Source: an uncultured Candidatus Saccharibacteria bacterium
Lineage (GTDB): Bacteria; Patescibacteriota; Minisyncoccia; Phycocordibacterales; UBA5272
Direction: 5' to 3'
Assembly (NCBI GenBank): GCA_964621595.1
Contig: CAZUPO010000001.1
Location: forward strand, 14,758-78,757
Length of the DNA: 64,000 nt
The translations under genes and the position numbers were made by a program. This document shows positions 1 to 51,946 of the stretch, piece after piece (the first letter of the stretch is position 1; each line of letters opens with the position of its first letter). Below the pieces are notes generated by a model. The model did not search any database. It saw only the letters and a program-made list of their open reading frames with translations, and was not told the DNA's origin.

Positions 1-2492
1 CCATTGCATCATCAAACGCTTCTATTCCTGTTGGGAATATTACCGTTGATACTATAAATTATCCAATAAAATTCTCTGGGGAATTTGAGAACGCGAAAGA
101 ACTTCCTGACATAGCAATAACTACTACACAAGGAGTTCCGGTATACCTACGTGATATAGCATTCATCGTGGACGGATTAGAGGTGCCAAGTACATATTCT
201 CGTGTCTCTATGAAAGGCACTCCTAGCGAACAAGCGCTGACATTGAACATCTATAAAAAATCTGGTGGTGATGTAACAAAAATCACTCGCGATGTAAAAG
301 AGAAGATTGAAGAACTCAAACAGGACAAACTTCTAGGTGCACAGGTTGTGATTTCTTTTGATAGAGGTCACCTTGTCGAAAAAGATTTGAAAGAACTAAC
401 ACGCGTAGGACTAGAAACAGTCACCTTGGTGATGATCATGCTCTTCCTCACAATTGGCTGGCGCGAAGCACTTGTGGCCGGCCTCTCGATTCCCCTTTCG
501 TTTGTCATTGCTTTTATTGGCCTCTATGCATCGGGAAATTCTATTAACTTCGTTTCTCTCTTCTCTCTTATCTTGGCAATTGGCATTCTTGTTGATTCTG
601 GTATTGTGGTTGCTGAAGCAATACACACCAGACGTAAACTACTTGGCTCTAGTTATGATGCTGCGGTTGCATCGATACGAGAATATGCCTGGCCACTTAT
701 TGCCGGAACAATGACCACGGTTGCGGTGTTCGTACCACTATTTTTTATATCTGGAACAACAGGTAAATTTATTGCCTCTATTCCGTTTACGATTATATTT
801 GTCCTCATTGCGTCTATCTTTGTAGCCCTCGGTATGGTGCCACTTCTTGCGATACTACTTACCAAGGACCATAAAAATCGTTTTGAGGATATGCAAGAAG
901 AGTGGTCGGAGAAAGCAAAAACGTGGTATAAGGCAAAACTCCTAACCATTCTCCACTCTAAGAAAATACAAAATATCTTTCTCGTGTCACTTGGTGTTGG
1001 ATTTGTGGTTGCCCTCTCACTTCCAGTAGCGGGTCTTGTGAAGGTACAATTCTTCCCTCAGGATAATCAAGATTTTATTTTTGTAAGTATTGAAAAGCAA
1101 GAAGGTACACCGCTTGCTCAAACAGATCTATCTGTTAGAGAGGTGGAGGAAATGCTCTACAGTAGTGAGCATGTTGATTCTTTTGTCACGACTATTGGAG
1201 AATCATCGGCATTTACAAATAATGGGTCAAGCAGGAATACAAAGTTAGCGAGTATCACTGTCTTACTCAAAAAAGACAGGGTGCTTACCTCTACCCAAAT
1301 TGTTGAGAAATTACGAACAGAATTCTTACCAATCACATCTGCCACCATCAAGGTTGACCAAGGAAATAATGGACCGCCAAGTGGGGCACCTGTGGTAATA
1401 AAATTCTTGGGAAATAACTTAGGGGAACTATCTATCGCCTCTGATAAAGCAGAATCTATTCTTAATGAGATTGCCGGTACGCAGGATGTTCAAACATCAC
1501 TCCGAGATGACGGAATACAATTTAATATTCATATTAATCGAACGAAAGCGTCACTGGTTGGCCTCTCTCCACTTAGTGTTGCACAAATTCTTCGAACATC
1601 TGTCTCTGGAACAACCGCGACGACCATTAAAGATGGGTCCGATGATGTAGATGTCGTTGTAAAACTAAACCTTAACAGTGCCTATATCAATCCAGAAGAC
1701 ACTATAAAGACCAACATAGATACGATCCGGCAACTTCCTGTAGTTACACCAACCGGAGGATCCATTCTTCTTGGATCAATATTGGATGTAGAACTTGGAC
1801 AGAGCAGAGCAATCATCAGCCACGAAGGAAAAGAACGTGTTGCGTCCGTTACAAGTAACGTAAAGCCTTCATTCACGGCCGTGGAGATTGTAAATGATTT
1901 CAAAAAACGAGAAAAGGAACTTAATCTTCCTCCAACCGTGAGTATAGACTATGGTGGTGAAAATGAAGAAGTAAACAGATCCTTTAGAGACATGTTCCTA
2001 GCCCTTATTGCTGGCATGGTTGGTATGCTGGCGATCCTTGTGCTCGAATTTAACTCAGTACGTTTTGCGATGTATTTACTATTTGCAGTTCCCCTTTCCC
2101 TCATTGGTGTCTTGGGAGGTCTTGCTATCACGGGAAAAACATTATCCTTCTCTTCCATGCTTGGATTTATTGCGCTTGCTGGAGTAATCATTAACCATGC
2201 CATCATATTGTTAGACTCGATACTCCACAGACTTCACAAAGAACAAGAACTTCGATCTCCTGCAACACTAGATATAATTATTACAGAATCATCCGCGGTT
2301 CGACTCCGACCAATCTTCCTTACAACAGTAACAACCGTTATCGGAATGATACCACTTGCTGGAGCCTCCGCACTCTGGGGACCACTTGCATTTGCAATTA
2401 TGTTTGGACTCACCTTTGCAATGATACTTACACTTGTTCTCGTTCCAGTACTGTTCTATCGTTACCCAGGAATCTACAAGGGTATGAAGTAA
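1..2492 (+). CDS. RND-family efflux transporter permease (AcrB/HAE1-like), 5'-partial at the window edge
   Basis: Frame is open from nt 3 with no stop until 2490-2492. Multi-TM C-terminal half with a large periplasmic loop typical of RND pumps; AT-rich native composition. Confidence 0.85.
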   Translation, partial: IASSNASIPVGNITVDTINYPIKFSGEFENAKELPDIAITTTQGVPVYLRDIAFIVDGLEVPSTYSRVSMKGTPSEQALTLNIYKKSGGDVTKITRDVKEKIEELKQDKLLGAQVVISFDRGHLVEKDLKELTRVGLETVTLVMIMLFLTIGWREALVAGLSIPLSFVIAFIGLYASGNSINFVSLFSLILAIGILVDSGIVVAEAIHTRRKLLGSSYDAAVASIREYAWPLIAGTMTTVAVFVPLFFISGTTGKFIASIPFTIIFVLIASIFVALGMVPLLAILLTKDHKNRFEDMQEEWSEKAKTWYKAKLLTILHSKKIQNIFLVSLGVGFVVALSLPVAGLVKVQFFPQDNQDFIFVSIEKQEGTPLAQTDLSVREVEEMLYSSEHVDSFVTTIGESSAFTNNGSSRNTKLASITVLLKKDRVLTSTQIVEKLRTEFLPITSATIKVDQGNNGPPSGAPVVIKFLGNNLGELSIASDKAESILNEIAGTQDVQTSLRDDGIQFNIHINRTKASLVGLSPLSVAQILRTSVSGTTATTIKDGSDDVDVVVKLNLNSAYINPEDTIKTNIDTIRQLPVVTPTGGSILLGSILDVELGQSRAIISHEGKERVASVTSNVKPSFTAVEIVNDFKKREKELNLPPTVSIDYGGENEEVNRSFRDMFLALIAGMVGMLAILVLEFNSVRFAMYLLFAVPLSLIGVLGGLAITGKTLSFSSMLGFIALAGVIINHAIILLDSILHRLHKEQELRSPATLDIIITESSAVRLRPIFLTTVTTVIGMIPLAGASALWGPLAFAIMFGLTFAMILTLVLVPVLFYRYPGIYKGMK

Positions 2493-2498
2493 AACCCC

Positions 2499-2533
2499 CT
2501 ACCCATTCTGCTTTTTCCATTTGTAGAGTGTTG
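2499..2533. repeat. Direct repeat copy 1 (32/35 nt identical to 3201-3235), immediately upstream of GC-rich cassette A
   Basis: ctacccattctgctttttccatttgtagagtgttg versus ctacccattctgctttctccattcgtagagtgtta. Confidence 0.7.
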
Positions 2534-2552
2534 TATATTTAATTTAAGCAAA

Positions 2553-2581
2553 TTGACCTACTGTTTTTAAACTGATAGTGT
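2553..2581 (+). promoter_or_regulatory. sigma70-like promoter TTGACC-17-TAGTGT for cassette A
   Basis: Hexamer spacing 17 nt; followed by AAGGAAAGGG RBS and ATG at 2630. Confidence 0.5.
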
Positions 2582-2629
2582 GTTACGAGCAGGTTCCCAA
2601 ATTGCAGCACACTAAGGAAAGGGCGGCAC

Positions 2630-3145
2630 ATGATAAGAAACATCGTAACCGGGGATATCACCGATCCGATGATCAATCCCGGCGACATCATCATCGGCAT
2701 GAACTCGAAACTCACACAGGCTTCCGCGATCGGGAGGCCGTTCGTACGCAACGTGGAGGTGATCAAGCAGATCGATCTCGGATCGGTGCTCACTTTCAAC
2801 TTCGAGCCGGGGCGCTTGCTCCACATGCTCATCTGCCACAAGATCGGCAAGGGTGGTTGGGCGTCGGCAGACAAGTTCGTGCGCTTCTGCCTGGACTACC
2901 TGTGGAAGGAACACGGGCGTCGGCAATACGGAGTCGTCCAGATCGGAACTGGTTCCATCGGCAAGCGTGACGGCGCCGACTCGGCCGCCATCAGGACGGC
3001 GATGACCACCAGCTTCCTCGAGATGGATCTCTTCATCAGACCCGAGGAAGAGGAGGCGGCGACACGGGTTACACAAACCCCGCTCGTCCCCTTCCGCACC
3101 TGGAGCATGGACAAGGGTGAACGCGAGATCCGCGTCCATCACTGA
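2630..3145 (+). CDS. Macro-domain-like protein (ADP-ribose-binding fold); GC-rich cassette A
   Basis: High GC in an AT-rich context. N-terminal VTGDITD...DIIIGMNSKL...AIGR and a later G-rich IGTGSIGK loop resemble Macro-domain motifs (V.GDIT / hhhNAAN..L / G.G.yG), but the NAAN motif is degenerate (GMNS). Confidence 0.45.
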   Translation: MIRNIVTGDITDPMINPGDIIIGMNSKLTQASAIGRPFVRNVEVIKQIDLGSVLTFNFEPGRLLHMLICHKIGKGGWASADKFVRFCLDYLWKEHGRRQYGVVQIGTGSIGKRDGADSAAIRTAMTTSFLEMDLFIRPEEEEAATRVTQTPLVPFRTWSMDKGEREIRVHH

Positions 3146-3162
3146 AACGAAGGCATGTCCAG

Positions 3163-3196
3163 AAGGCCCCCGTCCGAAAGGAAGGGGGCCTTTTGA
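3163..3196 (+). terminator. Intrinsic terminator (AAGGCCCCC / GGGGGCCTT stem followed by a T-run)
   Basis: GC-rich hairpin followed by TTTTG, directly after the cassette A stop. Confidence 0.7.
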
Positions 3197-3200
3197 AATA

Positions 3201-3235
3201 CTACCCATTCTGCTTTCTCCATTCGTAGAGTGTTA
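3201..3235. repeat. Direct repeat copy 2 (native 3' end of rlmB)
   Basis: Overlaps the rlmB stop codon and last codons; pairs with 2499-2533. Confidence 0.7.
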
Positions 3236-3947
3236 CAGCAATTGCATTAGACGCGTTCAGCGACTCACATAAGCCGTTAATAGGTATCGAGAGTTTGAAA
3301 TCACAATGTTCAAGAGTTTTGTGTGCTATCCCCTGACCTTCACTGCCAACGACTATAACAGTATTTTCATCAAAAACAGTCTCTGTTAGACGTGAATCAC
3401 CTCCCCCCGTTAAGCCGTATACCCAGAAACCTTTTTCTTTAAGAGATAAAAGGGTGTTGTTAACATTACTCACTGAAATTATTGGTATAGAAAAAATGGC
3501 ACCAGAGGATGCTTTGGCAACGACACTCGTTATTTGTGCCTGATTATGTTCTGGCATAATAACTGCATCAACACCAAAGGCCAGACAACTTCTCATGATT
3601 GCACCGACGTTGTGCGGATCTTCAAGATGATCTAGAACAACAATGATCTTTTTACCTTCCTTTTCTTCTGCTAAAACCTCGGGAAGAGTCTGATACAAAC
3701 TACCCCCATCGATCAATACCGCCACCCCCTGATGAACAGCACCCCTCCCAACATGATGTTCCAATTCTTCTTCTGTAACAATGCTGTACGTGAGACGATT
3801 AGACTGAATTGTACTCATGATGAAAGAGTCTTTTTCCCCAGCTCGTGTGAGATACACTTTTTGAATAGGAACACGGGCACCTCGTACACGCGCTTTAAAT
3901 AATTCTTCGACCGTATTTTTACCGTAGATATATAATCCCTGTGACAT
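3201..3947 (-). CDS. rlmB: 23S rRNA (guanosine-2'-O)-methyltransferase RlmB / SpoU-TrmH family
   Basis: N-terminal L30e-like substrate domain plus C-terminal SPOUT motifs (VVLDHLEDPHNVGAIMRS, VYGLTGGG, ESLNASNA). Confidence 0.85.
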   Translation of the reverse strand: MSQGLYIYGKNTVEELFKARVRGARVPIQKVYLTRAGEKDSFIMSTIQSNRLTYSIVTEEELEHHVGRGAVHQGVAVLIDGGSLYQTLPEVLAEEKEGKKIIVVLDHLEDPHNVGAIMRSCLAFGVDAVIMPEHNQAQITSVVAKASSGAIFSIPIISVSNVNNTLLSLKEKGFWVYGLTGGGDSRLTETVFDENTVIVVGSEGQGIAHKTLEHCDFKLSIPINGLCESLNASNAIAVTLYEWRKQNG

Positions 3948-4563: not shown

Positions 4564-7500
4564 CTATTTAACGGTGACAGAATCGCGTACTACATAAGTA
4601 CCACGACAAGTGAGTGTATATGTTTTTCCGGTGACACTACTATAGAGACCGACATCTTCTGATCCAGTAGTATTCTTACCATTAGACCACGCGCCACTTG
4701 CCATACAAGACTTTAGATTCTCACCAGTCCAGGACAGAATAACTCTTCGTTTTCCATCTACCATTTTTGTGGAGTAGTTTAATGTAACAGCAGGATTCTT
4801 GTTTGTGTCTTTTGTTAACACAGTCTCAACAGCAGAAGAAATTGATTTTACCGGTGAGGCAATTGCGCCAAGTGCTTTATCTTTTAGAGCAGTGGCGGCA
4901 CGAACACCGTAATTCTTTGTGTCAAAACGAATTTCGCGAGATATCTCCCCGCCTGGTCCTCCACAGGTTAGTTTGAATCCTTGGGTTCCACCAACCTTAT
5001 CGACAGCATATGAACCTGATGTTTCCTGTGCACCGGACCATGAACCTGACGCCTTACACCAAAGTGCGTTCGTCGTTTCCCAGAGGAGTGACACTGGCTT
5101 TCCATATTGAATGATGTGAGGAGTTGCTACAAAGGAAAGTGTTGGCGGTGGAGAGTCTGAGAAATTAACCTCAACAAAACTTGAGATAGATCCCCCGTCG
5201 CCGGTACACGAGAGTACATAGTTTTTACTTCCTGTTATTGGTTGCGTAGTAAAGGTACCCGCAACATTCTTTACACCGTCCCAATCACCAGAAGCATCAC
5301 AAGATGAAACGTTTTCCGCTTTCCAAACAAGAGTAATTGGTTTATTTGGCGTAATCTTACTCTCCTGCATAGAGAATCGTAATTTTGGCTGTGGGGGCGG
5401 GTTCGTAGAAACAACCTCACGTCTAGGAGATCTAATTGTTTGAATAACAATGACTGGTTGCTCAGCGTTTATTGTTATAGGTAATGGTACAGATGGATCA
5501 CGATCGGGTATCACATTTTGTTGAGTAATTGTTTGTCGTACAGTCTCCAATATCTGAGGCACCGCAACTGTCTGTTCTTGTGCTACCGTTGCAACCGAAG
5601 TTGTATTCGAAACCGCTTCTCCTGAGGTAGTAACTGCGGCTGTAGAGAAAGTTTCTGCTGGTACAACCTGTGGAGCAACTGAAATACCGACCGATTGAGT
5701 TATTTCGCCTCCATCACCTGTACACGTAAGAAGATATGATTTGTCACTGGTGAGTGAATTTACTTGCTGTTCTCCTGCAAGACCTCTATTTACCGTCACC
5801 CAATCACCCCCAGAACTATAACACTCTGTTGCATTTCTTGCCCTCCATGAAAGAGTTGCTGTGCCACCATAAGAAACCGCATTCTCAGATGAACTAAAAG
5901 TAAGCGTCGGTGGTACTTTTCTAATTATTTCTACAGCCGTTACAGCTGGTGCCTGGTTTACAGTAATAATAGCTGACTGACTAGCCTTTCCACCGGGGCC
6001 CGTGCATTCAATTGTATATGTTGTATTTGCGCGCGGAGACACTGTTTGTGTATCAGATGTCGATGTTTTATCTGTCCATGGAGCACTACACGCCGTTGTG
6101 TTAGTGGAAGACCACGTGAGTATACTAGATTGCCCTTCAGTAATAGTTGTCTGTGATGAATCCAAACTCACTTGTGGTAATGGTTTAGTTTCTGCAACTA
6201 CCTGTGGAGCAGAAACAGTTACGGTAATTGCCTGCTCACCCCTTCCCCCTTCTCCAGTACACGAAATTCTATACGTGGTAGTTGTAGATGGCGAAACTGT
6301 CTCTGATCCAGATATAGCCGAATTATTTCCCCATGATGACGTACACGTCGTCGCGTTAGTAGAACTCCAAGATAACCTTGTGCTTTGCCCTTGGGTAAGG
6401 GTCGAGGGAGACGCATCGAGTGTGACCGTTGCTGGTTGAGCAACTTGGACTACCGGGGCTGGACCTACAGCGATATTTACAGAATCTCGTGCTTCTCCAC
6501 CAACTCCTGAACAAGTAATTGTAAATACAGAACTTTCAGTAAGTGGAGGTGTTGTAAAAGAGGAAACAGTGGCAACTGGACCCGTTCTCCATGAACCTGT
6601 ACATGAATCCGCGGCTGTGGAAGACCAGTTAAGCACCGTTGCTGTGTTGTATGTTAGATTATTTGATCTTGAAGTCAATGAAACTGTTGGTACAGGTGGA
6701 GGCGGTGCCACAGTGATGGTGATAGATTTTTTTGTTTCTTGTCCGGCAGCATTATAACAACTAATAGTGAATCTTTTATCTTGGACCAATCTAGGAAGAT
6801 CTTCTTGGCCCGATAGTGACTTATTACCAGACCAATCGTCACTTGCTACACATCGTGTAGCGTTCCCGGAGGACCAATACAGGGTTGCTGGTGAATTATA
6901 TGGGAGACTATTTCCCGAAGAAGAAAAATCTATTGTTGCTACTGGCGTTGTACATGTGCTTGCAGTATTCACCCAACTCCCCCAGACAGGCTGACCATAT
7001 GAATCGGGACATGTACTCGTGCGCGTCTGGGTTACAGTACCATTCTGACCCGTTGGACATGAGATGGTCTGCTGTTCTGAAGATGTTCTACATGTGGGAG
7101 TTGGGGTAACGCATGTGTTTGTAGTATTCACCCAACCGCCCCAGACAGGCTGACCGTATGGATCAGGGCATGTACTCGTACGTGTCTGTGTTATAGAGCC
7201 TGTTTGCCCAGTTGGACAAGACACAGTCTGGTTTTCTGACGATGTCCTGCACGTGGGAGTTGCTGGTGCGTCGTTCATGGTCACAAACGCAGACTCTTCT
7301 GGTAACCATGTCCCCACAGGATTTACGTTATAACAACTAAGCACAAAGAATGGTTTTGTAAACGTACTTTTTGCAGGAAGATTTCTAATGACTTCTGTTC
7401 CACTTACTGGTTTGTACCCGGAAGACCATAATCCAACTGGGACACTTCTTCCGTAACAACTATTCCCCTGAAAGACACCAACATTTTTTGCATCCCAAGA

Positions 7501-10775: not shown

Positions 10776-11129
10776 GTGGAAACCAGCGAAATGAAGGTAT
10801 ACCCGTTTGGACTGATGTTCCAGATCGCCGTGAGCGCCCTGCCGGCAATGAGGCGGCTCATTTGCTTGCATGTCTATGGCGGGGTTCAAACTACCACCAT
10901 TCGGTCGCAAACAGGGCTCTCGAGGAAGTTCCGCCTGCGCGTTGGAGAGAAAATTCAGGACCTCCCGGTTCCTCTACCCAGAAGCGAAGAGGTGCCCGAA
11001 CTCTCGTCCAGGGAGGTACGAAAATTGCTTGAGGACCTCGGCATCACGCCCAAGAAGTTGTCGGAAATGTTCAACATCCCCGAGGAGATCCTGAAGGAGA
11101 TGTGCCCACCCCAGCCTCCACTACAATGA
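10776..11129 (+). CDS. Hypothetical protein, GC-rich cassette B (GTG start)
   Basis: GGAAGGA RBS 5 nt before GTG at 10776; extended -10 TGTTATAAT at 10734-10742; high GC; no family recognised. Confidence 0.45.
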   Translation: METSEMKVYPFGLMFQIAVSALPAMRRLICLHVYGGVQTTTIRSQTGLSRKFRLRVGEKIQDLPVPLPRSEEVPELSSREVRKLLEDLGITPKKLSEMFNIPEEILKEMCPPQPPLQ

Positions 11130-14682: not shown

Positions 14683-15171
14683 ATGAAAGTGCTCCAAAAA
14701 CTCGTCGACGTGGTGTGGAACCACGTCATGCAGTCCATCTTCACCCTCTTCCTCTTCAGCGCCATGGGCTTCATTACCAAGTACTCCTACAAGAGCCTCC
14801 TCCAGGAAACCGGGGTGAGCGGCCTCATCCTCCCCCTCGTGATCCTCACCTTCATCGCCACCCTCTTCTTCTGGGGGATGTGCCAGAAGGAGCCCTTCCT
14901 GCGGCTGAAGTCCCCCTGGATGTTCTTCGGGAATGGCGTTGGCGCCCTAGCGATGCTCATCATCATCATCGCGTGGATGGCCCTCGCGTGGACCATGTCG
15001 GAAGGCCTGGGCTGGTACTTCAGCCCCGAAGACGCCCACTATCTGATCCACGGGTCGGTTAACATCTCCGGCTTGGCGATGATCGGCTGCGCGGCGCTGT
15101 ACTTCTTCGATGTCGGGGTGGCGGACTGGATCCGCCAACGGCTCGAGAAGTTCCGCTTCATCAAGAAGTAA
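14683..15171 (+). CDS. Hypothetical polytopic membrane protein (~4 TM), GC-rich cassette C
   Basis: AAAAGGAACCGCC RBS; hydrophobic segments; high GC. Confidence 0.5.
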   Translation: MKVLQKLVDVVWNHVMQSIFTLFLFSAMGFITKYSYKSLLQETGVSGLILPLVILTFIATLFFWGMCQKEPFLRLKSPWMFFGNGVGALAMLIIIIAWMALAWTMSEGLGWYFSPEDAHYLIHGSVNISGLAMIGCAALYFFDVGVADWIRQRLEKFRFIKK

Positions 15172-15398: not shown

Positions 15399-15881
15399 AT
15401 GACCACCGAATACCGCACTCTCGAACCGAACGTGTTCACCCCCGTCGACGCGACGTTCATCACCAACAACCCGAACCTCCCCTTCAACTGGCTGATCCCG
15501 GGCATCGACGACATCCTCATGAACCTCGAGATCTGGCAGATCGGCCTGGTCATCCTCGCCTTCATCATGCTGAACTTCATCAACCGGCTGCGCGATCGCA
15601 TCAAGCAGCACGAGCAGTGGAAGTCGCAAGCCGCGCCGGAAATCGTCGCGAAGTACGCGGCGGAGAACACTCCGGCCGCGTGCGTGAAGAAGGTCATCGC
15701 CTTCTTCCGCGAGTACAAGTTCGGCGCGGCGTTCAAGCGCGTCGTGATGGTGGTCGGCGGCACGATCTGCGCCGCCATCATCATGTACTTCTTCGCCGGC
15801 ACCGCCGGCGCCTTCTGGGCCGCCGCAAGCGCCCTCGGCATGTTGTACCAAGCGACGAAAAAAAAGGAGGTGACGGACTAG
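15399..15881 (+). CDS. Hypothetical membrane protein (2-3 TM), GC-rich cassette D
   Basis: High GC; hydrophobic helices; own promoter and terminator. Confidence 0.5.
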   Translation: MTTEYRTLEPNVFTPVDATFITNNPNLPFNWLIPGIDDILMNLEIWQIGLVILAFIMLNFINRLRDRIKQHEQWKSQAAPEIVAKYAAENTPAACVKKVIAFFREYKFGAAFKRVVMVVGGTICAAIIMYFFAGTAGAFWAAASALGMLYQATKKKEVTD

Positions 15882-15938: not shown

Positions 15939-16112
15939 ACTTTTATACTGCCGACAAACAAACTATTTTACCTTCTTTGGTTTCTTTTTTTCTTTACGAT
16001 GAAATTTTTCTTCTTTTGCCATATGCAGAGAAGTGTATATCAAAAATCAATCCTCATATGTGGATAGGATCACTTTTTGGTACATGGTGTAAATCTATGG
16101 TAGAGTGATTCT

Positions 16113-16360
16113 ACCTAGCCGTTTCTTGCCCCCGCTTGTGTCTCCCACTTGCACAGGGTGCCGGACTAATGAGAGATCTCTATCTCGCACAAGCGCTTGA
16201 CCAAAAAGAGTCGCCTGCGCAGTGTTGACGGCCATGGTCTGCATTTCGTCGTGTGAGTATCTAGTAGGAGTGGGGGTTTCCTCTGAGCCCCTGGGGTCCG
16301 ACCGAACCACGACGTAAATGCTCCCTCGATTACTTCCTCCGGGAAGTGCTCGAGGGTTCT
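16113..16360 (+). ncRNA. Candidate structured ncRNA (~250 nt, ORF-free and GC-enriched), class unassigned
   Basis: Upstream promoter TTGGTA-18-TGgTAGAGT at 16077-16106. Internal long-range pairing (CGCTTGTG / CACAAGCG). Ends in a nested hairpin with a UCCG tetraloop plus T-run (16323-16368). No RBS-led ORF. Confidence 0.3.
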
Positions 16361-16376
16361 TTGTTTATACATCATA

Positions 16377-22064: not shown

Positions 22065-22253
22065 CTACTTCTTCTTCAGTCTCCGATTGCGAGGTACCAC
22101 TTCCACTTTGCGGCTGCTACGCACATCCGGCGGGCACTCGCGATGGATCCTCTGGAGTGCCGCCAGGTGGCGCGGCCCAACCACGAGGCGCGCACCCTCC
22201 GCCATCTCCTCCATGTGCCTGGCGGCATCGTTCTCGGGGTTACGCGTTGCCAT
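22065..22253 (-). CDS. Small hypothetical protein E2 (62 aa), GC-rich, overlapping the E1 stop
   Basis: Start lies 11 nt upstream of the E1 stop (possible translational coupling); stop at 22065, just before the terminator. Confidence 0.35.
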   Translation of the reverse strand: MATRNPENDAARHMEEMAEGARLVVGPRHLAALQRIHRECPPDVRSSRKVEVVPRNRRLKKK

Positions 22254-22767
22254 GACGACCCCGCCTTCTGGACTTCATCACCCCCTTCGGCCTCACGCGG
22301 GTCTTGCGACGCTTCGTGGGCTTGAGACCCTCCTTGCTCTTCATGACGCCGTTGATCAGGCGCTTCAACTTCCGGAGGCAGATCTTCTCCTCGTCCGAGA
22401 GGTTGGACGGGTAGGGCAAGATGGGCTTGCTCGCAATGAGGTTGCGCACGAGGCCACGCTGCATTTCCCGCGAGTGAGCCATCACCTTCAACCAGATCTC
22501 GCGCGCAAGTTCCCACGAAAGACCCAGACGTTCGAAGATGCTCTCCATCGCCAAACCTTGAGCGACTTCGCCTTCCGGGTCGAAAACGCTCAGGCGGTGA
22601 ACCCACCTCCTGTAGCCGACACCCTGTGTCGACCGAGAGCGTTCGCGCAAGAGGATCGCGAGCATGATGTCGATCACCTTGGTGCGTTCGCGGTACGGCC
22701 TGAACAACGGCTCCATCATGCGCTCCTGTGAGAGCCTGGCGCGTTCCTTGATACTTTCCGTAGTCAT
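22240..22767 (-). CDS. Hypothetical protein E1 with a Lys/Arg-rich C-terminal tail, GC-rich cassette E
   Basis: GGGAGG RBS 5 nt before ATG at 22767; high GC; the three frames all carry long spurious ORFs, so gene-level confidence is moderate. Confidence 0.45.
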   Translation of the reverse strand: MTTESIKERARLSQERMMEPLFRPYRERTKVIDIMLAILLRERSRSTQGVGYRRWVHRLSVFDPEGEVAQGLAMESIFERLGLSWELAREIWLKVMAHSREMQRGLVRNLIASKPILPYPSNLSDEEKICLRKLKRLINGVMKSKEGLKPTKRRKTRVRPKGVMKSRRRGRHGNA

Positions 22768-23556: not shown

Positions 23557-23575
23557 AAAAAGCCAGCGAACTGGC

Positions 23576-23940
23576 ATCTGGAGAACCACGAGACGAGGGA
23601 CCTGCGCACGTAACGCAGTGCATAGACTTCGCAAAGGAATCGACCTGACGGACAACTCTCGTGAAGCCGATCCCTACGCCTTAATCTCGTGGCCTCCAGA
23701 CAAATATAAGTATATACCACCAGAAAACGAAAACCCCCTCACATGAGGCATGTACAATGGGGGCGCAGGCCGGGGATGGACGACGAGGTTAAGGAGAACC
23801 CTTTCACACAGGAGACGGGCGCCTCCGCAAAGGCCCTAGGTAGGATGCCGCGGGCAGGGATGTGCCTTCGGCAATCCCTCCTGTCACCTCGTCGTCCTCC
23901 CGGCAATACCTATAGTATCACAAACTTCTATAACCAGAAA
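23576..23940. ncRNA. GC-rich ORF-free structured region between recR and rplU; candidate ncRNA(s), strand and class unresolved
   Basis: No RBS-led ORF. Terminator hairpin at the low-coordinate end (23555-23575, T-run on the minus strand) and a bidirectional terminator at 23944-23975. 12-bp long-range stem GGACGACGAGGT / ACCTCGTCGTCC (23790-23907). An AT-rich promoter-like patch at 23697-23730 may split it into two RNAs. Confidence 0.25.
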
Positions 23941-24441: not shown

Positions 24442-24756
24442 ATGTTCACGCACTCCTCGTTTTTGCTTTCTCTGCTGTGCGTCTTGGCATGGCTCACCCT
24501 GGGACTCCTGAGTGTCCTGGTGCACTTCCAAGATTTGCACTTCCGCGAGGAGGTGCTCGATGACCTCGACGGAAGCAACGGCCCGGTGGCGTTCGTATCC
24601 GGGTGGATAGCGGGCGTGATCTACGTCTGCATCATCGGCGGGTTTTATGCCATTGCCCACATCGTGGAGAAGATCAAAGCCGGTCTCCAGGCAATCAAGG
24701 AGACCCTGCAACTCTACTACGAGTTGCTCTTCCCTGACGACGATGCCGAGGCCTGA
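24442..24756 (+). CDS. Small hypothetical membrane protein (2 TM), GC-rich cassette F
   Basis: Two hydrophobic helices and an acidic C-terminus; high GC. Confidence 0.45.
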   Translation: MFTHSSFLLSLLCVLAWLTLGLLSVLVHFQDLHFREEVLDDLDGSNGPVAFVSGWIAGVIYVCIIGGFYAIAHIVEKIKAGLQAIKETLQLYYELLFPDDDAEA

Positions 24757-25898: not shown

Positions 25899-25927
25899 TT
25901 AGATAAAATATTTCTATGTGGTATAAT
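25899..25927 (+). promoter_or_regulatory. sigma70-like promoter TTAGAT-17-TGgTATAAT (extended -10) driving the ORF-free GC-rich region
   Basis: Read directly; followed by the ORF-free GC-rich region. Confidence 0.5.
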
Positions 25928-25933
25928 CCCCTG

Positions 25934-26255
25934 ATCATTCTCGTAACTCCCTCCACCGTAACGGTTGGGCATAGCGGGGATGACACCGGGGGTCTGTGGT
26001 CGCGCGTTGTGCAACCGTGCGTTCACACGTAGATGCCCGGGTTCCGCCGGTTACACGAATGTAACACTATAAGTCTCAGCTAGATTAGGGTCGCAAGAAT
26101 CCAAAAGACAGCCCAATCAACCCTGATGCATTCGCCGTAGCCGGTTTACTCGATGCCCCTTCCAGAGGGGTAATGACCCTTAACCAGGGTCGGTCAACAT
26201 GACCATCGCTGTACCCGCCCGGGCCACCATCGTGTGTGCCCGGGCAAACTCTTTA
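25934..26255 (+). ncRNA. Candidate structured ncRNA (~320 nt, GC-rich, no ORF), class unassigned
   Basis: Promoter just upstream; many GC hairpins (the GCCCGGGC palindrome twice, CCCCT…AGGGG); ends before the yqeY promoter. tmRNA and RNase P signatures were looked for by eye but not confirmed. Confidence 0.3.
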
Positions 26256-26276
26256 TGTGGTATACTTATGTACACT

Positions 26277-26720
26277 ATGCAAGAAAAAATTAAATCAGCT
26301 ATCAAACCAGCAATGCTCGCGAAGGATACAGTGCGTCTGGGCACTCTTCGTATGCTCGTTGCTGCTTTTACAAATGAACTTGTCTCTCAAGGACACCCTC
26401 CTACAGACCCTCTTTCTGACGAAGATTGCATGAAAGTGATCAAGCGTCTCGCAAAGCAGCGCAAGGACTCTATCGACCAATTCATCGCTGGTGGACGACC
26501 AGAACTTGCAGAAGATGAAAAAGCAGAACTTGCTATCATCGAAGAATTTCTCCCGCAACAGATGAGTGAAGCAGAAATCGAAGCAAAGATAAAAGAAAAG
26601 ATTGCCGCGTCTCCTGTAGACCCAACCAAGAAAGGCCAGTTTGTCGGCATGATGATCAAGGAACTTGGCGACAGTGCTGACGGTGCTGTGGTGAAGAGGA
26701 TAATAGACTCTCTTGTCTAA
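26277..26720 (+). CDS. yqeY: GatB/YqeY domain-containing protein
   Basis: MQEKIKSAIKPAMLAKD…VRLGTLRML…AKQRKDSIDQF is typical YqeY; start taken at MQEK (GC drops here). Confidence 0.8.
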   Translation: MQEKIKSAIKPAMLAKDTVRLGTLRMLVAAFTNELVSQGHPPTDPLSDEDCMKVIKRLAKQRKDSIDQFIAGGRPELAEDEKAELAIIEEFLPQQMSEAEIEAKIKEKIAASPVDPTKKGQFVGMMIKELGDSADGAVVKRIIDSLV

Positions 26721-27166: not shown

Positions 27167-27517
27167 ATGGGGAAACGTCAGTACAGCCATGAGGACGCCC
27201 TCCTCGCGGTGCGTTTCGCAGTGTGGTACGCAGCCGCACGCGAGAGTTGGAAAAAAGGTGAACCTCACCCGATCCGGCTCACCCGCAAGTTCGCAGAGGA
27301 TAAGGATATTCTGGCCCGACATATGGGTCATGATTCCTACCGAGCGATGCCTGCCGATACGAAAAGTTTGATCGGTATGGCTGCTGCCAAGATGAAGAAG
27401 CAAAAGAAGGAGTTGAGAGATGGCGCCCGTAATGATCTCGACCCCTTCGAACTCGTCCTTCGCGACGTCATCGCTGACCTCACGAAGGGCGAGCAGATCA
27501 ACGCCGTACCGAAATAA
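27167..27517 (+). CDS. Hypothetical protein G1 (116 aa), GC-rich
   Basis: High GC; operon with G2 (11-nt gap, RBS GGAGACCC). Confidence 0.45.
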   Translation: MGKRQYSHEDALLAVRFAVWYAAARESWKKGEPHPIRLTRKFAEDKDILARHMGHDSYRAMPADTKSLIGMAAAKMKKQKKELRDGARNDLDPFELVLRDVIADLTKGEQINAVPK

Positions 27518-27528
27518 GGAGACCCATC

Positions 27529-27774
27529 ATGTCGGACCCCGACACTTTGAAGGAAATCGAGACGACACTTGCGGGGGTGATCAACCCCAACACGGTCGTT
27601 GCGATCATGAGCGAATTCCTCGGCATCACCAAGGAACAGCTCGAGAAGAATCACGACGGCTCGACCCCGTGGGTGCGCCAAGAAGTGCTGAAGGTCGCAT
27701 CCAAGAAGAACTCCGCTGATCGAACGCACATGCTGGCGAAAATCCAGCAGATCATCGCAGAGAACTCGCGATGA
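27529..27774 (+). CDS. Hypothetical protein G2 (81 aa), GC-rich
   Basis: Immediately downstream of G1; followed by a strong terminator. Confidence 0.45.
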   Translation: MSDPDTLKEIETTLAGVINPNTVVAIMSEFLGITKEQLEKNHDGSTPWVRQEVLKVASKKNSADRTHMLAKIQQIIAENSR

Positions 27775-27792
27775 GGCACGAACCGGCGGAAA

Positions 27793-33733: not shown

Positions 33734-33982
33734 TCACGGCGCCTCCATTGTGCAGACCATCGGGTCGGCGTTGATCGCGTCGCACAGCGCCTGCAAGTGC
33801 CGACGCAACTGCCGCGGGGTCATCTCCTCCACCGGGTCGGTGAGCAACTCGTGTTTTCCGTCCAGAGTTGCCAGCACCTCACTGGCTTTCTCGATCTCGG
33901 AGAGGAGATTACTGCGCTCCACTTCCGGTGACGCGTGTCCGCAGGGTTTCGCGGTGTACGGCATGATTCTCCTTTCTGCCAC
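33734..33982 (-). CDS. Hypothetical protein H2 (82 aa), GC-rich
   Basis: Second gene of a two-gene GC-rich operon; RBS AAGGAG. Confidence 0.45.
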   Translation of the reverse strand: MAERRIMPYTAKPCGHASPEVERSNLLSEIEKASEVLATLDGKHELLTDPVEEMTPRQLRRHLQALCDAINADPMVCTMEAP

Positions 33983-33992
33983 AAGGGCAAGT

Positions 33993-34241
33993 TTACGTAG
34001 TCAAGGTTTGGATTGTCTTCTGCAAGTCCGCTTGGTACTTCTCGAGGGCCTTCACGAACTCGAGATCACCTACCGGCTTGCGTCCGTCATTCCACTTTGC
34101 CAGATGATTGTCGATATCATCTGAGCCCCGGAGAAGTTTGTGCTTCGGGTCGAGTTTGCGCAACTCACCTTCGGCACCAGCAACCATCTCGGATAGTTGG
34201 TTGAGTGCAACCATAGCCTCCCGTTTTACTAGGGTGTTCAT
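33993..34241 (-). CDS. Hypothetical protein H1 (82 aa), GC-rich
   Basis: First gene; RBS GAGGGGAGACGGAGC; coiled-coil-like. Confidence 0.45.
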   Translation of the reverse strand: MNTLVKREAMVALNQLSEMVAGAEGELRKLDPKHKLLRGSDDIDNHLAKWNDGRKPVGDLEFVKALEKYQADLQKTIQTLTT

Positions 34242-35510: not shown

Positions 35511-36278
35511 ATGTGCACAGTCAATGATGGTAGTTCGTTCTTCCGGCCGATGACCATGATGGACATCGCCTTCATTGCCACCAAGTACAACGAGTTGCCG
35601 AGGCAATTGCTGTACGACCTCTACGAGGCAATGACGGATCACAACACGGTCCGGCCGGCGGTTATGCTGGTGATCCTCGAGAGCCTTCACCGGCTCAAGA
35701 GCGGTCATCTGGGTGCCAGCGCCTACGGTGCCGTCTTCGCCTACAGCGCCCTTCAGATCAAGGATGGTGGTGATGGCAACATCTTCCACCGGTACCAGGA
35801 TCCGATCATGTCGCACATCCACGACGCGATGCTTCAATTCGCTCTCGCGGAACGCAACATGCGCAAGGTTCAGGAAGTCCTCCGTCGCTATCAGTACGAC
35901 TTCGTCCACTTTTGCGATTGCGGCTGCATAACCACTGTGGTCGACGTCGATTTCATGGAGACGGAGGAGTACAAGGCGGTGAACCTCATCCGCTCCTATG
36001 GCGAATCGATTGGGGCGCCGGTGCACCAGGTGAAATCGATCGACGATCTCCCCCTTCACCTGACCGACATGCATCCGCACGAGGTCGCCGGTTACAAGAA
36101 GATCTGGGGCACCCTGCAGATGCTCCCCGTCCATCCCTTCGAGGGTACGCTGGAACTCTCGCAGGCATTCGAATACTTGACCAGCATGAAGGAGGGTAGC
36201 AATGCCGGTAGCGGCCGTCGTTCGTGTATCAACGCAGTGGGGGCCAAGACACCGGTTGCAGATCACGCTGCCCGATAA
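35511..36278 (+). CDS. Hypothetical protein I1 (255 aa), GC-rich cassette
   Basis: AGGAG RBS 8 nt before ATG at 35511, where GC rises; the 35439 start in the ORF track lacks an RBS. Confidence 0.45.
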   Translation: MCTVNDGSSFFRPMTMMDIAFIATKYNELPRQLLYDLYEAMTDHNTVRPAVMLVILESLHRLKSGHLGASAYGAVFAYSALQIKDGGDGNIFHRYQDPIMSHIHDAMLQFALAERNMRKVQEVLRRYQYDFVHFCDCGCITTVVDVDFMETEEYKAVNLIRSYGESIGAPVHQVKSIDDLPLHLTDMHPHEVAGYKKIWGTLQMLPVHPFEGTLELSQAFEYLTSMKEGSNAGSGRRSCINAVGAKTPVADHAAR

Positions 36279-36501
36279 CGATGTGGTTAACGTACGCCTC
36301 CATGCGTGCGAAGACTGCAGCTTCATCGAGTGGAGTAAAGCAACCGGAAAAGAGGTTGCTCAGACAACCGTAAGTGAAGCATTCCTCCGGGCTGTGGCGA
36401 ATTTGGTCACCTCCGGAGAAAACCGAAAACTCCCTGAACTTGTCGCCGAAGGGCAGCAAGCACTTGGAGATTACGCCAAGAACCCGCCCTTCAACACATA
36501 G
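36202..36501 (+). CDS. Hypothetical protein I2 (99 aa), GC-rich, overlapping the I1 3' end out of frame
   Basis: 77-nt overlap with I1; followed by a weak terminator at 36519-36550. Confidence 0.35.
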   Translation: MPVAAVVRVSTQWGPRHRLQITLPDNDVVNVRLHACEDCSFIEWSKATGKEVAQTTVSEAFLRAVANLVTSGENRKLPELVAEGQQALGDYAKNPPFNT

Positions 36502-40695: not shown

Positions 40696-41061
40696 CTAGG
40701 GCTGGACGGTCGTCGCCTTGAAGAGGTCGAATTCGTCGTCACCCAGCGGGTTGTTGTAGTCCGGCATGAAGTCCATGTCGCGACGCGCATCCACGGAACT
40801 ATCGTGAGTGCGGAAGTCGCAGTCGTCACCGAAGGTGATGCCGGGATCACCGTTGGCGGCAGCCCCTTCGCAGATGTGCCGCTGGAGTTCCTCCGCCTTG
40901 GGAGTCATGACGCGGAGCACCTTCATGCCACCCATCCGACCACGCTGCACCTTGGTGATGCCGAAACCCGTGGCCGTGTTCCTCAGGTACTTGATGAGCC
41001 GCTCCACCTCCACGGAGGTGTCGTAGCCGGTGTAGACATCCAAGCAGTACGATTCTTGCAA
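40696..41061 (-). CDS. Hypothetical protein J, GC-rich cassette (probable TTG start)
   Basis: AAGGAG RBS 7 nt before TTG at 41061, where GC rises; the alternative ATG at 41121 lacks an RBS. Confidence 0.4.
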   Translation of the reverse strand: MQESYCLDVYTGYDTSVEVERLIKYLRNTATGFGITKVQRGRMGGMKVLRVMTPKAEELQRHICEGAAANGDPGITFGDDCDFRTHDSSVDARRDMDFMPDYNNPLGDDEFDLFKATTVQP

Positions 41062-41184
41062 GGCAATTCTCCTTTTCAAAATTACTCTATTAAGGGAAGG
41101 GTTGTACCCGTCTTGTAACATACTACAATATGAAAATAATTCTGTCTAGTTGCTGGTCGAATCGAACTAAAAATTCTTGGAACA

Positions 41185-41474
41185 AAATTGGATGTATTAT
41201 ACATTCCTCTAATCTTCAGATTTACTATCAAACTCCGTCTGCATTCTGGTCATCCATGCGTTTTTATTTTCACCAGTTCTGGCTTCCATACTCATAATAC
41301 TAGCCGTGTGTGCTTCATCAGATGTCATGTGAGGCATTCCTTTCTGGATAACTTCCATAAAAGTATCTCCAGAAAATTTCTCGTCGCAAGTTCCTCCCAA
41401 TTCTCGACATGTAAATGTTTTGCTCATATGAATTGAGTATACCATTTTTTCTGCGCTATTTTTGTGTGTTGCTG
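41185..41474. repeat. 290-bp direct repeat R1a (100% identical to 44141-44430) carrying a DUF1059 gene
   Basis: Identical ORF translations at +2956 offset; nucleotide-level identity over 290 bp. Confidence 0.9.
41209..41427 (-). CDS. DUF1059-family small protein (copy 1)
   Basis: MSKTFTCRELGGTCDEKFSG…H…H fits the DUF1059 C..G.CD pattern; the plus-strand 82-aa ORF is antisense noise. Confidence 0.6.
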   Translation of the reverse strand: MSKTFTCRELGGTCDEKFSGDTFMEVIQKGMPHMTSDEAHTASIMSMEARTGENKNAWMTRMQTEFDSKSED

Positions 41475-41580
41475 AGCGTCTCGGGTTAGAACCAAAGGGT
41501 TCATTGCACTGTAAGGCTTTGGTGGCTATTTTTAGTATAGCATTTCCACGCGTCTCGAGCGCTGTAAAATTACTGTCGAA

Positions 41581-43060: not shown

Positions 43061-43251
43061 GCTGGGGTACAAGGACTCGGTCACGAAGTCTATTTTTAGA
43101 TTACAAAAAATATAAGACTTCTCGACCCCGTATTCGAGTCCTTGCCGAAAGTGACGCAGGTCACTTTCTTACCCCATCAAAGCGTAAGTTTAAAGAATGC
43201 TACGCATACAGTATATAATTCGCTTTGCTGGGGTACAAGGACTCGAACCTC
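43061..43251. repeat. 191-bp direct repeat R2a (copy of 46597-46786) containing two tRNA-Gln 3'-end fragments
   Basis: tRNA 3'-end copies at 43059-43080 and 43227-43252; internal 9-bp perfect hairpin GAAAGTGAC-GCAG-GTCACTTTC. Confidence 0.85.
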
Positions 43252-43381: not shown

Positions 43382-43981
43382 ATGCCCGCACTCGATCGAC
43401 AAGAAGGATACTTGGTAGCGCACGAAACCCTGCTGGCCGAACTCAAGGCCATGTGGGCAGATCCCAAGGTCCAGCTCTACAACGATGCGGAGCTTCCCGC
43501 GTTCAGCGATACCGCCGTGTTCCTGGCCGGGCCGACGTCGCGCAACCAGATCCTGGAATGCCAGTGGCGTGCCAAAGCGGTCGCGTTTCTGCGCAAATAC
43601 GGCTTCGAAGGATGGATCTACTGCCCGGAACCGCGGGGATTCGAAGCTCCCGGCGATTTCACCGAACGGGGCTACATCCACCGCTGGGAATCCAGTCGGC
43701 TCTTCACGCCCACCACGTGTGCTGAGTACGCCGTGTTCTGGATCCCGCGCAAGGCCGACGAACTGCTCGGGCTCAACACGAACCTCGAGCTCGGCATCAT
43801 GATCGGCAAGTGCATGATGCGAAACGATTACGAGCGGAGGAAGCTCTTCGTCGGTTGGCCGGACAGCGCGGAGCGCATGGGACTCCCGAACCATTACATG
43901 GGCGAGATCGTCCTCGAGCGGTACACCGCGCTTGACACAATCTGCGCCGACCTGGCCGCATCCGTCAGGAATCGCCGTTAG
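43382..43981 (+). CDS. Nucleoside 2-deoxyribosyltransferase / DNPH1(Rcl)-like protein, GC-rich cassette K
   Basis: AVFLAGPTSRN (cf. YFCGSIRGG) and NTNLELGIMIGK (cf. S.GVGYELG, catalytic Glu); RBS AGGAGG. Confidence 0.5.
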   Translation: MPALDRQEGYLVAHETLLAELKAMWADPKVQLYNDAELPAFSDTAVFLAGPTSRNQILECQWRAKAVAFLRKYGFEGWIYCPEPRGFEAPGDFTERGYIHRWESSRLFTPTTCAEYAVFWIPRKADELLGLNTNLELGIMIGKCMMRNDYERRKLFVGWPDSAERMGLPNHYMGEIVLERYTALDTICADLAASVRNRR

Positions 43982-44140: not shown

Positions 44141-44430
44141 AAATTGGATGTATTATACATTCCTCTAATCTTCAGATTTACTATCAAACTCCGTCTGCAT
44201 TCTGGTCATCCATGCGTTTTTATTTTCACCAGTTCTGGCTTCCATACTCATAATACTAGCCGTGTGTGCTTCATCAGATGTCATGTGAGGCATTCCTTTC
44301 TGGATAACTTCCATAAAAGTATCTCCAGAAAATTTCTCGTCGCAAGTTCCTCCCAATTCTCGACATGTAAATGTTTTGCTCATATGAATTGAGTATACCA
44401 TTTTTTCTGCGCTATTTTTGTGTGTTGCTG
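44141..44430. repeat. 290-bp direct repeat R1b (identical to 41185-41474)
   Basis: See R1a. Confidence 0.9.
44165..44383 (-). CDS. DUF1059-family small protein (copy 2, identical)
   Basis: Identical to copy 1. Confidence 0.6.
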   Translation of the reverse strand: MSKTFTCRELGGTCDEKFSGDTFMEVIQKGMPHMTSDEAHTASIMSMEARTGENKNAWMTRMQTEFDSKSED

Positions 44431-44506
44431 GGAGTTGGGTGGGAAGTTGAAACTTTTTTGTTTGTAAATGGGGTATAATTCAATTATATATATTAATTAT
44501 AAAAAA

Positions 44507-46596: not shown

Positions 46597-46786
46597 GCTG
46601 GGGTACAAGACTCGGTCACGAAGTCTATTTTTAGATTACAAAAAATATAAGACTTCTCGACCCCGTATTCGAGTCCTTGCCGAAAGTGACGCAGGTCACT
46701 TTCTTACCCCATCAAAGCGTAAGTTTAAAGAATGCTACGCATACAGTATATAATTCGCTTTGCTGGGGTACAAGGACTCGAACCTC
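46597..46786. repeat. 190-bp direct repeat R2b; its last 24-26 nt are the genuine 3' end of tRNA-Gln
   Basis: Differs from R2a by a single G deletion in the first tRNA-fragment copy. Confidence 0.85.
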
Positions 46787-46833
46787 GATACTCAGGACCA
46801 AAACCTGATGTCCTACCATTAGACGATACCCCA
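46763..46833 (-). tRNA. tRNA-Gln (anticodon UUG)
   Basis: The reverse complement gives TGGGGTATCGTCTAATGGTAGGACATCAGGTTTTGGTCCTGAGTATCGAGGTTCGAGTCCTTGTACCCCAG: 7-bp acceptor, TTTTGGT anticodon loop, GGTTCGAGTCC T-loop; close to E. coli tRNA-Gln. Confidence 0.85.
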
Positions 46834-50823: not shown

Positions 50824-50890
50824 GGTGATTATTATTGTATGAGTATGGTGTAAGCGTACCACTTAGGCTAGAGTGGTGTCAAAATGACAT

Positions 50891-50915
50891 AGGAAAAGCC
50901 GCGCGTGGGCGCGGC
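50891..50915 (-). terminator. Intrinsic terminator for L1 (GCCGCGC-GTGG-GCGCGGC, T-run on the minus strand)
   Basis: Sits inside a 46-bp segment identical to 51382-51427. Confidence 0.65.
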
Positions 50916-50938
50916 GTCTTCCAACCAGCGGGTGATGA

Positions 50939-51283
50939 TCATTGCTGCGGGCGCGGTGGACCGATGAAGGGACTCCACTTCAACACCCCGCCGAAGGGCT
51001 CCTCCTCGCGAGCGACAACTTCAGTGCGTTCGAGGTCTTCGAGAACCTTCAGCACCTCTTCGTCGGTACATGGGCTGTAGCCCCATTCCATCAACTGACG
51101 ACCGATAGCGACGACTATCTGCCCGGTGCGCAAGGGCCCACCTTGCTCGAGGACCTCATACCTGACCATTCGGGCGAGTATCCCTAAACGCCGCTTCCCC
51201 TGCTCACGGATCCTGAGAATCTCGACCCCTCCGTAGAGAAGGGCTATGAACAGAACGGGCCAGAAATCCTGGATGACTTGCAT
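50939..51283 (-). CDS. Small membrane-anchored protein L1 (N-terminal TM plus C-terminal wHTH-like), GC-rich
   Basis: Promoter TTGACT-17-TAGTAT; 5'UTR motif TATTCCAA; RBS GGAGGAGG. Confidence 0.5.
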   Translation of the reverse strand: MQVIQDFWPVLFIALLYGGVEILRIREQGKRRLGILARMVRYEVLEQGGPLRTGQIVVAIGRQLMEWGYSPCTDEEVLKVLEDLERTEVVAREEEPFGGVLKWSPFIGPPRPQQ

Positions 51284-51384
51284 GACACACCTCCTCCAAT
51301 TGGAATATATTCATACTAGAATAGAGGTGAGGCGAAGTCAAATACTTTCAAATAATTTAGATAGTATAAAAATAAAATTACCAT

Positions 51385-51409
51385 AGGAAAAGCCGCGCGT
51401 GGGCGCGGC
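51385..51409 (-). terminator. Intrinsic terminator for L2 (identical to the L1 terminator)
   Basis: Same hairpin within the 46-bp perfect repeat. Confidence 0.65.
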
Positions 51410-51433
51410 GTCTTCCAACCAGCGGGTAAAGGG

Positions 51434-51799
51434 TTACGACGAGAGTGGCTCCCATATGTAACTCTCACCCTCCTTCTTCCGAATCACCCTCCCTTCTCGG
51501 TGCAGTTTCTCGAGAATGGTCATCACCCTTTCTTCGGATACGGGTGGTCTGAACGGGATGCTCCAGTAGTCATTGACGATGCTAGTAACCCCCACGACGT
51601 TTCCCCTACCGATCATAGGAAGTCCCCGAGTTTCGATGAACAACTCGAGCGTTTTCTCGCTCGTCTTCTTCCAAGTCAATTTGAGGTAAGCATGTTCCAC
51701 GAGCCACCGCAGGAAAGGAAACAGGCAGATCAATAACAACAACCAGGCAATCCAGTGTTGATACTTCTCCAAGATCGTGGTAACCATGGAGAGTTGCAT
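51434..51799 (-). CDS. Small membrane-anchored protein L2 (paralogous architecture)
   Basis: Promoter TTGACC-17-TATAAT; TATTCCAA motif; RBS GGAGGAGG. Confidence 0.5.
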   Translation of the reverse strand: MQLSMVTTILEKYQHWIAWLLLLICLFPFLRWLVEHAYLKLTWKKTSEKTLELFIETRGLPMIGRGNVVGVTSIVNDYWSIPFRPPVSEERVMTILEKLHREGRVIRKKEGESYIWEPLSS

Positions 51800-51896
51800 G
51801 ACACCTCCTCCTTACTAGGTTGGAATAATTTAATTATACAATAAAAAAATATTTTGGTCAATTCATCTTACAGCATTGAAATATAAAAATTTCCAT

Positions 51897-51924
51897 AGGA
51901 AAAGCCGCGTGTACAAACGCGGCT
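51897..51924 (-). terminator. Intrinsic terminator for L3 (AGCCGCG…CGCGGCT)
   Basis: Degenerate version of the L1/L2 terminator. Confidence 0.6.
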
Positions 51925-51946
51925 GATCCAACAGCGAGTGAGACCG

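Follow-up and report, generated by a model that had tools for sequence, protein, structure and literature searches.

In the 64-kb stretch of DNA analysed here (the window), a sequence identical or nearly identical to the end of rlmB occurs on both sides of a small gene of deviant composition, hereafter cassette A, and this arrangement raises the question of how a second copy of a gene end came to lie there. The preliminary description had read the repeat as an insertion footprint, made either by target duplication or by homology arms used for recombination. The window is an ordinary chromosome of the Patescibacteria/Paceibacterota, with genes for L9, CysRS, DnaB, RecR, RmuC, YqeY, AddAB-like proteins, enolase, pyruvate kinase, and MacB, and among named relatives a Candidatus Parcubacteria MAG is the nearest.

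The repeat and the unit that it encloses

The direct repeat, CTACCCATTCTGCTTT[T/C]TCCATT[T/C]GTAGAGTGTT, is 34 nt long, and its two copies (Table 1) are identical at 32 of 34 positions, with T in the left copy and C in the right copy at both mismatches. It had been described as a 35-bp duplication with 32/35 identity; the repeat is real and the count is numerically right, but the 35th base differs between the copies (G2533 versus A3235) and the true length is 34 nt. Homology ends abruptly at both edges, and no degenerate homology extending past the 34 nt was found when it was looked for at both copies.

When up to three mismatches were allowed, the 34-mer had exactly two matches in the 64 kb and none in 100 shuffles, and among 195 fetched loci the pattern was confined to contigs of the RND-rlmB locus. 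A 1-kb junction region was 100% identical in the 10 contigs that span all of it, and four shorter contigs were also 100% identical over the part that they cover. As the junctions are identical across these 14 contigs from three assembly sources (JGI, ENA, and Logan, representing different samples), the repeat is not an assembly artefact. The preliminary description had pointed out that a REP-like element would have many copies; the window and the 195 fetched loci together yielded two, both at one locus, and none at any unrelated locus. With only two copies, none expected by chance, and identical junctions across assemblies, the probability that the repeat is a generic intergenic (REP-like) element, a chance match, or an artefact is negligible.

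The right copy constitutes the final 11 codons and the stop of an intact SpoU_methylase/rlmB ORF, and the left copy begins 6 nt past the TAA (2490-2492) of the convergent AcrB/RND gene. From the position of the left copy, we infer that before the event only 6 nt separated the stops of rlmB and RND. The left copy would encode LYKW, with Lys in place of a Glu that is invariant in rlmB homologues: all of the ~119 C-terminal matches among the 120 homologues listed read LYE[W/F]. The second difference between the copies (R/K) falls at a position that varies among lineages. A sibling species from the same sample series, whose rlmB is 72% identical and whose RND gene is 85% identical, and a third lineage (62% in rlmB) both carry the right-copy base at the Glu position, and the E and R residues of the right copy match those of the sibling. 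Because Lys occupies an invariant Glu position at which the relatives share the right-copy base, the left copy is a non-functional, decaying relic that has been mutated since the event by C-to-T changes in an AT-rich genome, and its two substitutions provide a rough clock.

Between the copies lie 668 bp that form one complete transcription unit, consisting of a promoter, a CDS, and a terminator. The preliminary description had placed a GC-rich unit exactly between the copies; the exact bracketing stands, but only the transcribed part is GC-rich, the promoter stretch (2533-2629) having 39% GC. The GC3 of the CDS is 0.80, compared to 0.34-0.35 for RND and rlmB. The promoter scores below the threshold of a consensus scan. 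A relative of the cassette that is 74% identical and lies in another genomic context (L195) has the same TTGAC-N17-TAGTGT arrangement with a similar spacer, and since this arrangement is kept beside a different gene, the promoter belongs to the mobile unit. Homology between L195 and cassette A begins at the -35 box, and the repeat boundary at 2533 is located within 20 nt of this start of the mobile unit. At third-position differences between the two, the window had G/C and L195 had A/T at 64 sites, with the reverse at 17, a bias that fits a recent stay in a GC-richer donor. Terminal inverted repeats were looked for around the insert, and none were found.

The unit is foreign and mobile and has exact limits. 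The unit of acquisition is the full 668-bp transcription unit, whose left limit lies ~20 nt before the -35 box and whose right limit lies 5 nt beyond the terminator, and cassette A is the only one of the ~14 cassettes of foreign composition in the window whose exact limits are marked. As a separate observation, the -10 region at 2576-2586 (TAGTGTGTTAC) matches at 10 of 11 positions the rlmB sequence at 3226-3236 (TAGAGTGTTAC), which runs across the inner repeat boundary. This match is probably due to chance; the -10 is conserved in L195, and the matching tail is not.

Table 1. Positions in the window of the rlmB-end repeat, the parts of cassette A, the flanking genes, and the GC3-rich cassettes
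Feature	Position	Strand	Remarks
AcrB/RND transporter gene, 3' part	1..2492	+	Pfam ACR_tran E=2e-119; stop TAA 2490-2492; convergent with rlmB
Left repeat copy	2499..2532	-	stranded pseudo-3' end of rlmB; would encode ..TLYKWKKQNG*
AT-rich 20 nt, left edge of insert	2533..2552	+	from repeat boundary to -35 box; no homology to relative L195
Cassette promoter	2553..2581	+	TTGACC, 17 nt, TAGTGT; extended -10 TG at 2573-2574; read from sequence
Shine-Dalgarno-like AAGGAAAGGG	2614..2623	+	6 nt before ATG; leader unstructured
Cassette CDS, 171 aa	2630..3145	+	macrodomain-like fold (predicted); GC 58.9%, GC3 0.80
Intrinsic-terminator hairpin ending TTTT	3160..3195	+	dG -29.6 kcal/mol, z = -5.0; 5 nt before right repeat
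Right repeat copy	3201..3234	-	functional last 11 codons and stop of rlmB (..TLYEWRKQNG*)
rlmB, intact, SpoU-family 23S rRNA 2'-O-methyltransferase, 248 aa	3201..3947	-	Pfam SpoU_methylase (E=5e-41) and SpoU_sub_bind
GC3-rich cassettes, first seven	2630-3145, 10776-11129, 14683-15171, 15399-15881, 22066-22767(-), 24442-24756, 27167-27775		
GC3-rich cassettes, last seven	33740-34240(-), 35511-36501, 40696-41070(-), 43382-43981, 50939-51283(-), 51434-51799(-), 51947-52282(-)		

Relatives of the cassette and of the rlmB-end slot

The AF2 model of the 171-aa protein had a pLDDT of 86.6. A Foldseek search against the PDB returned 97 matches at E≤1e-3, and the top of the list consisted mostly of macrodomains, including alphavirus nsP3, YmdB, TARG1, and Poa1p (prob 1.0, E ~1e-5, TM ~0.5), which predicts a macrodomain-like fold. 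Macrodomain proteins such as YmdB, TARG1, Poa1p, and viral nsP3 bind or hydrolyse ADP-ribose. The cassette A protein resembles them in its predicted fold but differs in having no sequence-level match to Pfam (Macro families included) or to PDB sequences, for which a profile search gave nothing below E=0.29, and in belonging to a small and rare family. A defence role and a phage origin were considered as well and rejected, the first after a PADLOC search without a match and the second after no relatives were found in PHROGs or IMG/VR.

The family comprises 62 homologues in a word-indexed search and ~119 clusters among 1.84 billion representatives. Its members are stand-alone proteins of ~170 aa, and the contigs that encode them are of Patescibacteria type, with 33-59% GC. 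The neighbourhoods are unrelated: some members follow alaS, yqeY, or the gene for a TraG-like ATPase, others lie near pyruvate kinase, and none of the family loci examined lies beside rlmB. Flanking repeats were not found at five other family members, except for a shared 5'UTR in L168 and a marginal 15-mer in L190. In L168, a relative with 33% GC, the cassette A homologue and the next small gene share a near-identical ~60-nt 5'UTR/RBS (4941-5003 and 5690-5752), which suggests serial cassettes built on a common leader.

Two known kinds of small inserted unit bear comparison with cassette A. Phage morons are promoter-gene-terminator units of deviant composition inserted between genes, and cassette A is likewise an autonomous promoter-ORF-terminator unit of deviant composition between unrelated genes; however, it is located in a cellular chromosome (RND, rlmB, AddAB, and DnaB) rather than in a prophage, and its family has no IMG/VR or PHROG relatives. 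Integron cassettes are promoterless ORFs with an attC site, served by the IntI integrase, and their insertion leaves no target duplication. They share with cassette A the form of small single-gene units inserted singly, whereas cassette A has its own promoter and ends in a plain GC-stem and T-run terminator, not in attC, and no integron integrase was found in the window.

For the insertion site itself, GTDB genomes and JGI metagenomes scanned with rlmB gave a best identity of 54% without synteny, and a large protein database gave the 72% sibling and the 62% third lineage mentioned above. In the sibling (L174, 8748-9363), the slot contains, from the RND gene to the rlmB stop, a promoter, 124-aa and 41-aa ORFs of host-like GC, and a terminator, the 124-aa filler being an AT-rich membrane-protein cassette. 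In the third lineage (L192, 5750-5830), the slot holds another convergent gene, whose GC hairpin terminator is separated from the rlmB stop by 36 nt. The rlmB end is duplicated in neither of the two, and the space by the rlmB stop is filled differently in each lineage.

Beyond these relatives, no downstream duplicate of the rlmB end was found at any of 143 other rlmB loci, which scored like the controls (~10), compared to 28 for the window under similar ungapped scoring, indicating that the end of rlmB does not serve recurrently as an att site. The exact rlmB protein was present on 18 contigs, all of which carry the cassette, and the assembled contigs contained no variant allele, no empty site, and no circular junction; the population is clonal. 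One short ENA contig (L179, 1740-1968), in which the first 160 rlmB codons are joined to unrelated sequence, is likely an assembly chimera; it was left out and does not testify to another allele.

Origin of the duplicated gene end

A second bracketed insertion is present in the same window. A 178-nt perfect direct repeat (43074-43251 and 46609-46786) encloses 3.4 kb in which cassette K, itself GC-rich, is accompanied by a duplicated small ORF and by three ORFs that are AT-rich and have no Pfam match. The right copy ends 25 nt inside tRNA-Gln (46762-46833, minus strand), the sole intact tRNA in the window, and 22-nt relics of the tRNA 3' end at 43058 and ~46594 enclose a 145-nt remnant. No integrase was found in the insert, and the arrangement looks like a classic case of recurrent integration at the 3' end of a tRNA gene with subsequent decay. 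Cassette A had been called the only cassette with such a footprint, which is true for the immediate flanks of the 14 cassettes, the other 13 having no flanking direct repeats there, but not for the larger insert that holds cassette K. Taking the rlmB scar, the tRNA-Gln case, and the differing fillers in the sister lineages together, insertions in these uncultured bacteria appear to land repeatedly at gene 3' ends. In the same region, a 295-nt repeat (41185-41479 and 44141-44435, 99% identical) contains a small minus-strand CxxC ORF of ~68 aa; one copy lies beside cassette J, and the other lies in the tRNA-Gln insert beside cassette K.

Integrative elements are known at the 3' ends of genes, as with ICESt1 and its CIME at fda, and phage 21 and e14 at icd. 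The att repeats of tyrosine recombinases measure 8-60 bp and are found where a tRNA or housekeeping gene has its 3' end; one repeat contains that end, which leaves the gene undisrupted, and the repeats persist around remnants that lack an integrase, called CIMEs (PMC5704250). As the best of the explanations considered, we tentatively read the 34-nt repeat as the trace of a decayed att-like (Campbell-type) integration into the rlmB 3' end. Before such an event, rlmB and the convergent RND gene would have nearly abutted, with their stops 6 nt apart, and the empty site would have read ..ATGAAGTAAAACCCC + 34-mer + ACAGCAATTG... The 668-bp self-contained unit, coming from the accessory gene pool of the Patescibacteria, would have entered 34 nt inside rlmB through one reciprocal crossover, carried out by a supposed enzyme, between the chromosomal rlmB end and a 34-nt copy on incoming circular DNA; in att-type excision, the junction expected on the 702-bp circle would be ..CCTTTTGAAATA + 34-mer + GTATATTTAA... 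The crossover would leave one repeat on each side and rebuild the target gene. The right copy would then have stayed under selection as the real rlmB end, while the left copy would have become junk and gained C-to-T changes, and the mobility genes would have been lost or never have been present in cis, leaving a CIME-like remnant without an integrase.

Several observations speak for this att-like integration. The 34-mer is both unique and non-random, it extends from the point of insertion to exactly the stop codon of rlmB so that the ORF is restored, and the left copy has decayed at the invariant Glu. The length of the repeat (within 8-60 bp) and its position at a gene end, with an intact rlmB end as the right copy, fit known att sites, and the insert is foreign in composition, as in integrative elements, whose decay to integrase-less forms is known (PMC5704250). 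The second bracketed insertion at tRNA-Gln, the homologues in varied contexts, the promoter that travels with its gene, and the turnover of the slot, with different fillers in two related lineages, point in the same direction. Against it, no integrase, recombinase, or transposase was found among the ~45 ORFs of the 64 kb, and the insert, at 668 bp and one gene, is far smaller than usual integrative elements. The rlmB site is not reused at the 143 other loci and no relative of the cassette lies beside rlmB; the other 13 cassettes show no flanking repeats; and the clonal population offers no empty site, variant allele, or excision product in assembled contigs. Moreover, a circle carrying the lineage's own 34-mer implies that a close relative had earlier housed it beside rlmB, and the account then needs one more step. 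Since the structural features agree with those of an integrase-less remnant while the searches for an integrase in the 64 kb and for recurrent use of the site at the 143 other rlmB loci came back negative, we suggest, with the same reserve, that cassette A works like such a remnant, and we do not claim that it is one.

The main rival, a serious one although on balance unlikely, is that the repeat arose by non-homologous duplicative insertion at a staggered break or via replication template switching, in which case the 34-nt junction overlap would be the duplicated target. Foreign DNA, for example from natural competence, would have been inserted, and selection would have kept only the duplicating variant, because a non-duplicative insertion in the 6-nt convergent gap would destroy one gene. 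Competence-based uptake suits this account, as Patescibacteria are thought to gain genes by competence among other routes (PMC12455944). The account also needs no recombinase, in keeping with a window in which none was found, and it explains both why the footprint is seen at cassette A only, the other cassettes lying in roomier gaps, and why the rlmB end is not a recurrent target. It fits less well with a repeat that ends exactly at the stop codon, which has a chance of ~1 in 7 even after selection, and with the site-specific look of the tRNA-Gln case. In addition, we know of no well-documented bacterial process by which an insert of 668 bp comes to be flanked by a 34-nt duplication of its target; a known enzymology is lacking for this account. 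We consider it improbable that the cassette was imported from a related strain carrying it downstream of rlmB, by homology-facilitated illegitimate recombination in which one end was anchored by homology inside rlmB and the other was joined illegitimately; the right copy would then be the donor allele and the left copy the displaced end of the recipient. Donors whose slot is occupied are plausible, given that related lineages carry different cassettes beside the rlmB stop, and the R/K difference lies at a lineage-variable position. However, the illegitimate joint would fall inside the anchor homology, which is awkward for strand invasion, and the Glu-to-Lys change cannot represent a functional recipient allele, so decay after the event would be needed anyway. 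Neither the protein-database searches nor the exact-protein searches found a donor-like relative.

Target duplications made by transposons and IS elements are typically 2-15 bp. A direct repeat flanks an insert here too, but it measures 34 nt compared to 8 bp in a transposase example (PMC5704250), no terminal inverted repeats accompany it, no transposase was found in the 64 kb, and none of the 13 sister cassettes is flanked by a duplication. An origin as a classical transposon or IS target-site duplication is therefore extremely improbable and close to refuted, and the target duplication proposed in the preliminary description is unlikely in this transposase-type form. A broader version, which we regard as very improbable, would treat the ~14 GC3-rich units as undescribed miniature mobile elements moved by a trans-acting enzyme with widely staggered (~34 nt) cuts; the cassette A repeat would then be the only duplication still visible, with one half of it under selection as the rlmB end. 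Homology arms, the other mechanism named in the preliminary description, fail in their usual sense: a double crossover would not leave a duplication, and only a single crossover (Campbell or att type) or duplicative break repair would.

The reading of the repeat as a footprint of cassette A is itself supported by a unique repeat, the exact bracketing of a foreign unit, and a working rlmB end with a relic opposite it, although the two mechanisms, target duplication and homology arms, are inseparable by sequence alone. We regard the footprint as a real but fairly ordinary scar, of a kind already known but here unusual in its miniature size and its lack of an integrase, from a poorly known phylum, and on present evidence it reveals no new mechanism. 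It does show how a Patescibacteria genome that is streamlined and has hardly any space between genes can accept a gene without losing a neighbour.

The GC3-rich cassettes of the window

The broader pattern of many autonomous GC3-rich cassettes is a more interesting lead than the footprint of cassette A. About 14 units of the same design (Table 1) begin with a consensus-like promoter and a C-rich leader, followed by a CDS whose GC3 is 0.64-0.93 and by a GC hairpin; the housekeeping genes of the window have a GC3 of 0.28-0.39. Matches in Pfam, PHROG, or PADLOC are almost entirely absent, apart from weak ones to Nuc_deoxyri_tr2 (K) and CM_2 (E), and a search of the literature on GC-rich cassettes in CPR genomes found nothing specific. 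Cassette B, one of those in the roomier gaps mentioned above, is inserted in the AddA-AddB gap, which measures only ~30 nt in the third lineage (L192), and it shows no duplication.

Cassette I (35511-36278) has a 63%-identical homologue in L193 (5001-5765), in the same slot after a ParA/CbiA-like gene. The host proteins of L193 are 62-72% identical to those of the window, and the homologue has a GC3 of 0.51 between flanks of 35-39% GC. Either the slot has been reused or a high GC3 persists, and this shared slot with elevated GC3 indicates that not all cassettes are recent arrivals.

A candidate boundary motif, TTTATAC, which follows several terminators, was only weakly enriched and was rejected, most instances being the -10 boxes of neighbouring genes. 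In the adjacent, same-strand cassettes L, M, and N, the terminator hairpin is part of a shared 53-nt 3' module (50881-50933, 51375-51427, and 51887-51939), with identities of 94% and 64%; the proteins of L and M have no detectable sequence similarity. Finally, three GC-rich non-coding islands (25910-26283, 23557-23938, and 16100-16370) each have an upstream -10-like box and a terminal hairpin. None of the three had an Rfam match even at E≤1, and the segment at 25925-26262 folds well (z = -3.8). These islands may be undescribed structured RNAs.
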